DNA of 64,000 bases from an uncultured archaeon (lineage in GTDB: Archaea > Asgardarchaeota > Thorarchaeia > Thorarchaeales > Thorarchaeaceae). The position numbers were made by a program, and so were the translations under genes. The stretch spans positions 8,832-72,831 of the forward strand of contig CAZPWM010000001.1 of NCBI GenBank assembly GCA_964590575.1. Direction: 5' to 3'. Below the pieces are notes generated by a model that did no database searches, had not been told where the DNA came from, and worked only from the letters and a program-made list of their open reading frames with translations. Of the stretch, positions 23,850 to 25,979 are shown in pieces. Position 1 is the stretch's first letter, and each line of letters begins with the position of its first letter.

Positions 23850-25979
23850 GTGAAGAGAGATCTGGCAAACGCGTTCATAATTGGTCTGATACTGCTTTCA
23901 GCTATCCCCATCTATTTCGCAGATAGCACACCGAGCCAATCAGTTGAGGTCAATCTAGATAGTGTCCTAGTAGATGTTATGGTACTTCAAAATGGACGAA
24001 TCAATGTCACTTACTGGATTACTATCACAGTTTTATCAGGAACTCTCAACGAGTTTGACCTTTTCGGAATCCAAGAAACCACGATTTATGACACTGATCG
24101 CGCGTATGCTGAAGTAGGAGAAAATCGTTACAGTTTACTTGTTACAAAAATGTCGAGTGGATACACACTGAGGTTATCACAGAGTGTTTCTGCAGTGAAC
24201 ACTGTGACTGTTGTCTTTGGTTACTACAGTACGAATCGAATCATAGAGAAAACAACATCTGGCACTTATGGAGATCTTGGAGTTTTCAATTGGGCACCGG
24301 TCCAATGGGAGATCCCTATTGACTATGAAGCAGTCCAGGTCATCTATCCTATCGAAATGAATGCGTCATGGATTGAACCAAGTAATGGCGTTACTACTGA
24401 AGGCGCTGAGTTCGCTGGTTATGTCGTAGATGCCAATCAAGGTCTATGGGATGGAAGTCTCTTCGAGAACTTCGAGGAAGAGAATCTTCTAGCGTATCCG
24501 TATAGTGCCTCGGCTGATCCTCGCTACTTTACAGTTAGTCTAGGTCACACAAATATTGGAGATTATGATCATTTTAGGGTTTTTCACTACACTAACTGGA
24601 GCTTCTACGAACCATATCTTGAAGCTGGTGCTCTTGGTATCGATTATGTTCCGATAATCAATGTTAACGCAGATACGCTGTTTAACCTGCAGCTTGCCGT
24701 TTTCAACTATGGTGATGCTAACTTAGAGGATGTGACAATTACTATGTCTTTGCCCGAAAATCTCACACTCACGTCTGGGTCTGTGACGACACTTGTGGGA
24801 GATTTATCAGGTGGAGAAACATGGTACGAGTCTTACTCACTCATCCCTGCTAATGTTCCGGCTATCCTTACGATAGCTTTCCAAGTGAGTGCATCAAATC
24901 TGAACGCAACTGATTGGCTCACATTCACAATTGATGTATATGTCCAGGAGTATATTCCTCCGTTGATTCCGCCGAATCTGCTATTTGGAGGAGCCGCCAT
25001 TGTTATTGCTCTAGGTTTCATATTCTATGGCTACAGGAGAGTCACTCGTACCTATGGTGCAAAATGGGAGGCTGATGATACAACCTATACCTATGAGAGT
25101 CCTGAGATAGCGATACAGACATTCGGAGAGCCGGGAACGGTTGCAGAACTGGATCCAATCGAATCTGCATTCTTCATCAATACAACGCGACAAAAACTCG
25201 TGTCAATGATTCTCATGTCTTGTGTCAGAAAAGGCGCAGTTCGAGTTTTATCCACAGATCCTATGAAGCTCTCGGTGACAGGTCTTCAATTCCAAGACTT
25301 GACATATTATGAAGAGCTGTTTCTAGCAGCGATTGTTGATGATGAGCTCGACCCTGAGAAAGTAGATGACTTGCTTGAAGAGCTTGCTGACAAAGTTCAG
25401 GAGAAAGCATGGAGTGCAGACTTTGAGGCTACTAAGACACAGCATGACGAGATGATCGATGGGGCATGGGAAGAGTTAGAATCCTATCCAACACCGGATG
25501 ACAGGATAGACTATTACTTCAATCGTCAATACCATGGAGGTGGTTGGGCTTGGTATTGGCTGTACATGAATCCACGACATGATCACATCGGCGATGTCTT
25601 TGATAGACGTGGACCCTCCATCTCACCACCACAGGTTCCAGACTGGTTCTCTCAACTATCTGAGGCGACAGGTCATGCTATTAGTGGTGTTGGTCGGGTA
25701 GTAGGTGATGTAGCGGCAACCACTGGTCAGATTATGAACAATGTTGCAAACACTATTGGTAGTGTCCTTGAAGGAGTAGGCAATATCATCACTGAACCAC
25801 TAAAACCTCTTATTGAGAGTACCAGCAGATGTGTGTCACACGATGCATGTCATAGTGCTTGCGTTTCTCATGATGCATGCCATAGTGCCTGTCACAGTGC
25901 TTGCCATAGTGCTTGTGTCTGTCATAGTGCGTGTCATAGTGCCTGTCACAGTGCGTGTGTTTCCGGGGGCTTTAGATAA
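23850..25979 (+). CDS. Signal-anchored/single-pass membrane protein (709 aa) with C-terminal (Cys-His-Ser-Ala)n repeat tail
   Basis: N-terminal hydrophobic signal/anchor, mid-protein TM ([19 protein letters not shown]), C-terminal 49 aa containing 11 Cys and 10 His in CHSAC/[10 protein letters not shown] units. Confidence 0.7.
   Translation: [709 protein letters not shown]
25831..25964 (+). repeat. In-frame tandem 12-nt/30-nt coding repeat (TGYCAYAGTGCN)n encoding (CHSA)n
   Basis: Directly visible periodicity: tgtcatagtgct / tgccatagtgcc / tgtcacagtgct ... ; two longer 30-nt units ([10 protein letters not shown]). Confidence 0.8.

Follow-up and report, generated by a model that had tools for sequence, protein, structure and literature searches.

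The 64,000-nucleotide (nt) window analysed in this work (contig CAZPWM010000001.1, positions 8,832 to 72,831, of the uncultured Thorarchaeaceae assembly GCA_964590575.1) contains a gene for a predicted membrane protein, hereafter the carrier, whose last 49 residues form a Cys- and His-rich repeat. A gene for a radical S-adenosylmethionine (SAM)/SPASM enzyme, hereafter the maturase, is transcribed divergently from it, and a small gene, orf134, lies between the two. The tail is constrained at the protein level, is fixed in its architecture and is near-universally linked with one clade of radical SAM enzymes; the window enzyme combines a PqqD-like recognition element, a radical SAM core and a SPASM domain. 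We propose that the tail is likely a core peptide that this enzyme modifies on the membrane protein itself. The principal components of the locus are the following.

25830..25976, + strand: Cys/His repeat tail, the predicted core peptide of the neighbouring radical SAM enzyme (from translation, repeat analysis and conservation)
23850..25979, + strand: carrier gene, encoding a predicted type-I single-pass membrane protein of 709 amino acids (aa), with a GTG start (from the list of open reading frames (ORFs), hydrophobicity and AlphaFold2 (AF2) modelling)
21857..23290, - strand: radical SAM/SPASM peptide maturase, 477 aa, divergent from the carrier (from Pfam, motifs and synteny)
23394..23798, + strand: orf134, conserved and encoding a small soluble protein, located between the maturase and carrier genes (from synteny and homologues)

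A Cys/His-periodic repeat at the C-terminus of the carrier

The tail, which forms the C-terminus of the 709-aa ORF, is read in frame from C661 to R709 and is followed directly by the stop codon (25977-25979). The original prediction, made from the nucleotide sequence, had placed a coding, in-frame, C-terminal Cys/His-periodic repeat at this position, and this was confirmed by the ORF itself, by Tandem Repeats Finder, which reported periods of 12, 30, 42 and 54 nt over 25834-25960, and by autocorrelation, which peaks at lags 12 (0.59), 30 (0.61), 42 (0.67) and 54 (0.72) against approximately 0.1-0.35 at other lags. The description of the repeat as a strict 12-nt periodicity of about eight units holds in part: the 12-nt period is present, but its phase is interrupted, twice by a CVSHDA unit of 18 nt and once by a CV unit of 6 nt, and the CHSA units number seven (25848-25859, three at 25878-25913 and three at 25920-25955). 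The two 30-nt units, which had been described as interleaved, sit in tandem at the 5' end of the repeat. Repeat analysis gave the following internal organization.

25830-25889, + strand: two tandem 30-nt units (10 aa each), with a Cys-X3-Asp motif in each
25890-25955, + strand: further 12-nt CHSA units on either side of a 6-nt CV unit (25914-25919)

The tail ends in the order CHSA x3, CV, CHSA x3 and CVSGGFR. Nucleotide identity among the CHSA units is 75-92% (mean 86%), and all of the differences are synonymous. Eleven Cys and nine His residues occur among the 49 residues of the tail, compared with one Cys and eight His in the remaining 660 residues, and the tail therefore holds 11 of the 12 Cys and 9 of the 17 His of the carrier, at a Cys density of 22%. 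This enrichment, together with the presence of the same peptide in 41 independent assemblies, demonstrates that the repeat is real and not a product of chance. No second tail of this kind was found elsewhere in the window.

Conservation of the tail in related loci

A scan for related loci, with one genome per species, yielded 44 loci labelled Thorarchaeota, Promethearchaeota or Hermodarchaeota. The number and order of the units are identical in all 41 loci that reach the 3' end of the gene. The 42 Thorarchaeota-type sequences span 52-86% protein identity, and the remainder of the carrier falls to approximately 52-55% identity among orthologues; over these 42 sequences and the 49 positions of the tail, nine amino-acid replacements were counted in total. 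Compared with the window, the tail shows 1118 synonymous and nine non-synonymous codon differences, against 931 and 488, respectively, in the preceding 49 codons. Codons are mixed at every position of the tail: TGT and TGC occur at approximately 50:50, all four codons of Ala and of Val are used, and Ser switches between AGY and TCN. Far from being absent or unconserved in homologues, a possibility that the original prediction had raised against itself, the tail is the most conserved block of the carrier (conservation 1.0). Because synonymous sites vary freely while the peptide is nearly invariant, the substitution pattern indicates exceptionally strong selection on the peptide and not on DNA or RNA. 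A nucleotide-level role of the repeat, as an RNA or DNA element or an overlapping gene, was considered and ruled out on the same ground.

Some irregularities were noted among the related loci. The contig of locus L002 terminates in a Nextera adapter (2493-2544; CTGTCTCTTATACACATCT), translated as ...LSLIHI just ahead of the expected tail, which is adapter contamination in a public assembly. In locus L001 (identical to L005; GCA_048882945.1, JBHLRD010000156.1), an in-frame TAG at 4371-4373 replaces the GAA codon of the window (Glu642), 19 codons before the tail. The L001 tail is intact in frame after this TAG, and the gene was called as a 636-aa product and a 62-aa ORF; a sequencing error, a nonsense mutation of recent date and a recoded stop codon are all conceivable.

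The neighbouring radical SAM/SPASM maturase

The maturase gene lies approximately 560 bp upstream of the carrier start. Its radical SAM core (PF04055, aa 131-287) scores 106 bits against a cut-off of 29.5, and it is flanked by two accessory domains.

23000..23170, - strand: PqqD-like recognition element (RRE) for peptides that are made by the ribosome and modified after translation (RiPPs), maturase aa 41-97 (Pfam PqqD)
22025..22195, - strand: SPASM auxiliary Fe-S domain, maturase aa 366-422 (Pfam SPASM, TIGR04085)

The PqqD-like element (PF05402) scores 34.0 bits against a cut-off of 23.4, and the SPASM domain is recognized both by PF13186 (24.3 bits against 21.5) and by TIGR04085 (40.8 against 27); Fer4_12 is also above its cut-off, at 30 bits. 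The corresponding cysteine motifs are CNNKCRFC (CX3CX2C) and CKKCDKFSYCYGAC (CX2CX5CX3C). The NCBIfam models of PqqD and of the lasso-type PqqD chaperone match aa 1-124 of the maturase, under their cut-offs. The closest solved structures are those of SkfB, a thioether-forming sactisynthase, and PqqE. The combination of a PqqD-like RRE, a radical SAM core and a SPASM domain is the typical architecture of radical SAM enzymes that modify RiPPs, such as sactisynthases and ranthisynthases (PMC8326336).

Genomic linkage of the tail and the enzyme

In the related loci (L001-L046), the order maturase (-), orf134 (+) and carrier (+) is retained in 40 of the 41 cases with more than 500 bases of upstream DNA. 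Distant carriers show the same association in a different arrangement. A radical SAM/SPASM gene directly follows each of the relatives P0012, P0027 and P0099, in a gene order unlike that of the window, and the encoded enzymes share 43%, 46% and 32% identity, respectively, with that of the window over nearly the full length; the context of P0027 is bacterial-looking.

Metagenomes were scanned with a DNA pattern for three C-H-x-A units followed by Cys, and 79 of the 80 loci listed were analysed. True C-terminal tails are present in 61 of them; the other 18, out-of-frame or simple-repeat junk, were discarded. At least 1.5 kb of downstream flank was available for 37 true tails, and an orthologue of the window radical SAM enzyme (35-68% identical) lies less than 1.5 kb downstream on the same strand in 32 of them and within 1.9 kb downstream in two more (34/37). 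Of the remaining three, one has an upstream radical SAM gene that belongs to another class, one is of the Thorarchaeota type and its upstream flank is too short to show the enzyme, and the third, L088, is a 27-aa end-of-contig fragment with no radical SAM gene in its 1.9-kb downstream flank. In approximately 95% of tail loci, across very different lineages and gene orders, the tail thus adjoins a gene for an enzyme with RRE, radical SAM and SPASM domains.

The same type of repeat was also observed on other proteins. In L047-L050 (approximately 2588-6420) and L102, small signal-peptide proteins of 139-168 aa end in a 16-aa repeat of this type. These genes directly follow two or three genes for anSME/DynA-like radical SAM/SPASM enzymes of a different clade, and T2SSE ATPase and Shufflon_N (type IV pilus-like) genes are found next to them. 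They appear to represent a separate radical SAM target system with the same repeat. Since the repeat occurs on unrelated small proteins beside radical SAM genes, the CHSA repeat recurs in association with radical SAM enzymes whatever its carrier. In L052 (5217-6191) and 20 of the metagenome loci L054-L133, the radical SAM gene is followed by a gene for a 324-aa protein with multiple transmembrane (TM) segments, which has no family match and no homologue in the window.

The carrier membrane protein

Hydrophobic segments of the carrier were found at aa 3-27 and 369-395, and five of the six N-x-S/T sequons lie within aa 26-374. The AF2 model, built from an eight-sequence alignment, has a mean predicted local distance difference test score (pLDDT) of 50.8; its credible parts are a beta-sandwich at approximately aa 260-370 and a TM helix, and the tail, at a pLDDT of approximately 30, is uninformative. 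Two further features of the carrier bear on its topology and on recognition by the maturase.

24972..25046, + strand: TM helix, aa 375-399, followed by a 12-aa basic stretch (AF2, hydrophobicity)
25794..25829, + strand: conserved 12-aa pre-tail segment, aa 649-660, a candidate recognition sequence for the maturase RRE (conservation)

The carrier likely consists of a signal or anchor segment, an extracellular beta-rich region, the TM helix, a cytoplasmic region of approximately 260 aa and the tail. The C-terminal part of approximately 310 residues is placed in the cytoplasm because the TM helix is followed by basic residues, as the positive-inside rule would suggest. Conservation per block ranges from 0.6 to 0.9 in the other domains of the carrier, which is encoded by a single gene per locus. 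The block at 651-675 reaches 0.91, compared with 0.66-0.75 in the preceding blocks, and the conserved pre-tail segment is a candidate docking site for the maturase RRE.

Searches against Pfam and NCBIfam returned no family at threshold for the carrier, the only match being a sub-threshold DUF11/CARDB-like one at aa 272-352, and a sequence search of the Protein Data Bank found nothing. The exact protein is absent from the protein databases searched; queries with the full protein, its C-terminal 107 aa and a family profile recovered few orthologues, mostly as tail-less fragments and all annotated as "hypothetical protein". An exhaustive HMMER search yielded 210 representative relatives at E<=0.001. 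Among these, P0027 scores 24.1 bits with DUF2207_N (PF09972), against a gathering score of 24.4, and P0034 and P0142 reach approximately 17 bits with TIGR04222, against 43. The window carrier itself has no match to DUF2207 (PF09972) at E<=0.1 or to TIGR04222 at E<=1. On account of the near-threshold relatives, the carrier can be placed in a broad DUF2207-like group of membrane proteins without being a scored member of it. Its layout resembles that of DUF2207 and TIGR04222 proteins, in which an extracellular beta domain at the N-terminus is followed by a TM helix, a cytoplasmic part and a C-terminal tail of low complexity; the tails of classical DUF2207 proteins are rich in Gly and not Cys-periodic.

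The tail as a predicted substrate of the maturase

We are fairly confident that the tail is a substrate of the adjacent radical SAM enzyme and consider it likely that it serves as a cytoplasmic core peptide modified on its Cys residues by this enzyme with its RRE and SPASM domains. After insertion of the carrier, the N-terminal beta-rich domains would lie outside and the last approximately 310 residues inside, and the tail, being cytoplasmic by the predicted topology, would be within reach of a radical Fe-S enzyme. The PqqD-like element of the maturase would dock on the carrier, probably at the conserved pre-tail segment, and the radical SAM core with its two SPASM auxiliary clusters would act on the 11 regularly spaced Cys residues, probably with the assistance of orf134. 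The likeliest products would be intramolecular thioethers of the sactionine or ranthionine type, in which the sulfur of each Cys is bonded to a carbon in a small residue next to it; they would convert the flexible tail into a stiff ladder of small rings, still on the protein. Thioether cross-linking is put forward tentatively, and we lean towards a tail that stays attached rather than being cleaved. The original prediction had suggested a tunable metal-binding or cross-linking module. Tunability by copy number does not agree with the fixed count, and cross-linking comes close to the explanation favoured here, as the gene for a thioether-type radical SAM maturase is adjacent.

Tails of the relatives fall into three types, (ACH[S/D])n-ACVSGGxH/R, CVCACVSCACACASGGAG and (CA)nGCACACAGGGR, and the (CA)n type is paired with a homologue from the same enzyme clade. 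A more elaborate version of the system was observed in L053 (4543-10030), where a relative with a (CA)n...GGGR tail is preceded by a 121-aa TM/zinc-ribbon-like ORF and followed by two radical SAM genes with PqqD-like N-termini and a SAM methyltransferase gene.

Several observations count against modification of the tail by the maturase as proposed. A membrane protein of 709 aa is an unusual substrate for an RRE-bearing maturase. Among the best 25 of its 96 NCBIfam matches, the maturase reaches no equivalog cut-off, which places it in an unnamed clade, and its best NCBIfam scores are to the non-peptide enzymes AhbD (146 against 500) and NirJ2 (approximately 146 bits). The tail alone has no match at E<=10 to TIGR04117, a model of repetitive radical SAM target proteins, and the whole carrier has none in the NCBIfam scan. 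The only exception to synteny, L037, is a tail-bearing gene with no adjacent radical SAM gene in a closed genome. In this chromosome of a Thorarchaeota metagenome-assembled genome (CP070658.1; L037 1-5509), the C-terminal approximately 500 aa of the carrier, tail included, are part of a 781-aa frame with a different N-terminus and multiple TM segments, and both the maturase and orf134 are absent within 4 kb upstream; either a rearrangement or a misassembly would account for this. Finally, the (CA)n-tailed members contain neither His nor Asp, so these residues are not general acceptors and a PapB-like Cys-X3-Asp mechanism is not general. What the dialects have in common is therefore Cys at regular intervals, with small residues (Ala, Ser, Gly or Val) on its flanks. 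Comparison of the dialects favours bonds between the Cys sulfur and carbons of small neighbours, in the backbone or in side chains, or modification of Cys itself.

The tail could instead be an unmodified metal-binding device, as in a membrane-anchored metallothionein or a Cys/His metal chaperone or sensor, with the radical SAM enzyme acting elsewhere. With a spacing of four residues, the thiolates and imidazoles would serve as ligands for Zn, Cu, Ni or Fe-S, and the 11 Cys and nine His residues, the predicted location in the reducing cytoplasm and the strict conservation are all compatible with a defined metal site. Its Cys density and regular spacing, with added His, also resemble those of metallothioneins and Cys/His metal chaperones. 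However, this explanation leaves unaccounted for the linkage to the RRE, radical SAM and SPASM enzyme in approximately 95% of loci of diverse lineages and gene orders, homologous carriers have (CA)n or CVCACVSC tails without any His, and no metallothionein or metal-chaperone family in Pfam or NCBIfam is matched; known proteins of this kind differ from the window tail, which sits on a membrane protein and is genetically coupled to a radical SAM enzyme. We regard unmodified metal binding as unlikely. Metal binding as such is compatible with modification, since the His residues would stay free after thioether formation.

About equally unlikely is a classical RiPP pathway, in which the modified tail is cut off, for example after Arg660, and freed, the 660-residue part being a giant leader or scaffold. 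The maturase architecture is of the RiPP type, a conserved Arg directly precedes the first Cys, an ORF with an HExxH motif (27211..28440) is syntenic in most Thorarchaeota-type loci, and borosins provide a precedent for C-terminal core peptides on large proteins. Nevertheless, outside Thorarchaeota the system is not accompanied by any conserved gene for a protease or exporter, and both the HExxH ORF (orf409) and the downstream phosphoesterase are absent there. The other domains of the carrier are conserved (0.6-0.9 per block, one gene per locus), which is what a functional protein would show, the tail is predicted to face the cytoplasm, and the system resembles a housekeeping feature across a whole archaeal lineage.

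The original prediction took the repeat for a slippage-prone in-frame microsatellite whose copy number may vary between strains as a tunable module. A 12-nt tandem structure does exist, and the number of CHxA units ranges from 5 to 10, but this variation is found only between deeply diverged lineages: the count and order are constant in 42 of 42 sequences at 52-86% protein identity, with nine non-synonymous against 1118 synonymous codon differences. Units that are only 75-92% identical and saturated with synonymous variation are a poor substrate for slippage, unlike a slipped-strand contingency repeat. With the copy number fixed in 41 loci, the repeat is not slippage-tuned, and we consider such an origin very improbable. 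In favour of an assembly artefact, collapsed or chimeric, which the original prediction had also suggested as a possibility, some short-read contigs of homologues stop shortly before the tail and L002 ends in adapter sequence. This explanation can be dismissed, because the same architecture recurs in 41 independent assemblies from different groups, among them a closed chromosome and assemblies with contigs of 679 kb and 916 kb, and because the frame, the stop codon and the downstream gene are intact in the window.

Comparison with known radical SAM target systems

No publication on this system was found in a literature search, most subscription journals being outside its reach. Among known kinds, the window tail comes nearest to the "Cys-Xaa-Xaa-Xaa repeat radical SAM target protein" defined in silico (TIGR04117; PF27846, "tSAM_targ_Cxxx_rpt"), without being a scored member of it. 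We know of no experimental characterisation of these in silico predicted Cxxx-repeat targets. Both systems encode C-terminal tandem Cys-X-X-X repeats beside a radical SAM/SPASM gene: in the window, seven CHSA units with their CVSHDA and CV variants lie near the C-terminus, and the tail gene adjoins the radical SAM/SPASM maturase. Tails of the relatives score 13-17 bits with TIGR04117, against a cut-off of 50, and precomputed PF27846 matches are listed for P0010 and P0012, with P0012 rated "weak" and P0027 "faint". The TIGR04117 profile has 98 positions and describes a small stand-alone precursor, whereas the window repeat is the tail of a 709-aa membrane protein. TIGR04115, which we take to be the maturase family paired with TIGR04117, is not among the best 25 of the 96 NCBIfam matches of the window enzyme.

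Sactipeptide and ranthipeptide systems (SkfA/SkfB, the SCIFF pair CteA/CteB and the freyrasin pair PapA/PapB) resemble the window system in having an RRE, radical SAM and SPASM maturase and a Cys-rich, repetitive substrate. Freyrasin contains six Cys-X3-Asp thioethers, formed in PapA by PapB (PMC8326336). The two CVSHD units of the window fit this spacing, but only 2 of the 11 Cys residues in the tail are in a C-X3-D context, and the tail is not of the freyrasin type. The window maturase scores 91.8 against 340 with the PapB model and 113 against 625 with that of StsB, and the SCIFF maturase model gives 19 against 425 for the C-terminal segment of the enzyme scanned alone. Further differences are that the proposed substrate in the window is a large membrane protein, where those systems have short secreted peptides, and that the (CA)n-tailed homologues of the window system have no Asp or Thr acceptors.

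A precedent for cross-linking Cys in a functional protein, not in a natural-product peptide, is provided by QhpC/QhpD, where a radical SAM/SPASM enzyme installs Cys-Asp/Glu thioethers in a subunit of quinohemoprotein amine dehydrogenase (PMC8326336). The QhpD model gives 15 bits against 453 on the C-terminal segment of the window enzyme alone, and the substrate, the context and the repeat organization are different. The ACGX-repeat system (TIGR04340 radical SAM enzyme) and the His-Xaa-Ser repeat system (HxsB/HxsC) likewise pair four- or three-residue repeats with radical SAM/SPASM enzymes. The window enzyme scores 100 bits against 400 with TIGR04340 and 108 against 268 with HxsC, and the window repeat is A-C-H-S, not A-C-G-X or H-x-S.

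orf134 and other neighbouring genes

In all Thorarchaeota-type loci that have upstream DNA, orf134 occupies the same position and is 65-92% identical to that of the window. In three metagenome loci that are unrelated (L099, L108 and L127), homologues with 36-41% identity immediately precede the carrier gene on its upstream side, and for this reason orf134 is probably a third component of the system. It has no family match in Pfam or NCBIfam, and its single-sequence AF2 model (pLDDT 44.5) is unusable.

The genes downstream of the carrier, encoding a metallophosphoesterase, orf118 and orf409, were considered as parts of the system and rejected, as none of them occurs in non-Thorarchaeota loci. 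Only about half of the Thorarchaeota-type loci contain the metallophosphoesterase gene, and the sole metagenome match to these genes is in L062, which bears a Thorarchaeota-type tail. A candidate TTG start of the metallophosphoesterase ORF (25980..26735) abuts the TAA stop codon of the carrier (25977-25982). The product of orf409 (27211-28440, + strand; 409 aa), a possible metalloprotease, has an HEYEH motif of the HExxH type and no match in Pfam or NCBIfam. Its gene keeps the same place in most Thorarchaeota-type loci and is absent from non-Thorarchaeota loci with the tail and the radical SAM gene.

Implications

A coding tandem repeat that resembles a slippage hotspot can be among the most constrained peptides of a genome, which calls for caution in the reading of such repeats. 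The gene set described here points to an uncharacterised radical SAM modification system acting on a membrane protein, conserved throughout an Asgard lineage and widespread elsewhere. Research on RRE-bearing radical SAM/SPASM enzymes has dealt almost solely with their part in making small, secreted natural products; in this Asgard archaeal lineage such machinery is tied to the tail that a conserved membrane protein of 709 aa carries, and homologous gene pairs occur in many metagenomes from sediment, sludge and bioreactors. More speculatively, the tail may bear a previously undescribed modification installed by the radical SAM enzyme on the full-length membrane protein, for example a ladder of approximately 11 small, consecutive thioether rings or another Cys-derived structure, and might serve permanently, on the cytoplasmic side of the membrane, in a structural role, in redox chemistry or in the handling of metals; such a system would be found in essentially all Thorarchaeota and widely among anaerobic bacteria and archaea, in the three dialects (ACHS)n, CVCACVSC and (CA)n.

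As the 49-residue substrate is frozen, the set of maturase, tail and 134-aa helper is compact and the read-out is simple, the proposal is directly testable by co-expression. The predicted chemistry would be read out as a mass loss of 2 Da per link together with the loss of free thiols. The answer would give a function to many "hypothetical" membrane proteins with Cys-repeat tails, including those of the (CA)n...GGGR type.

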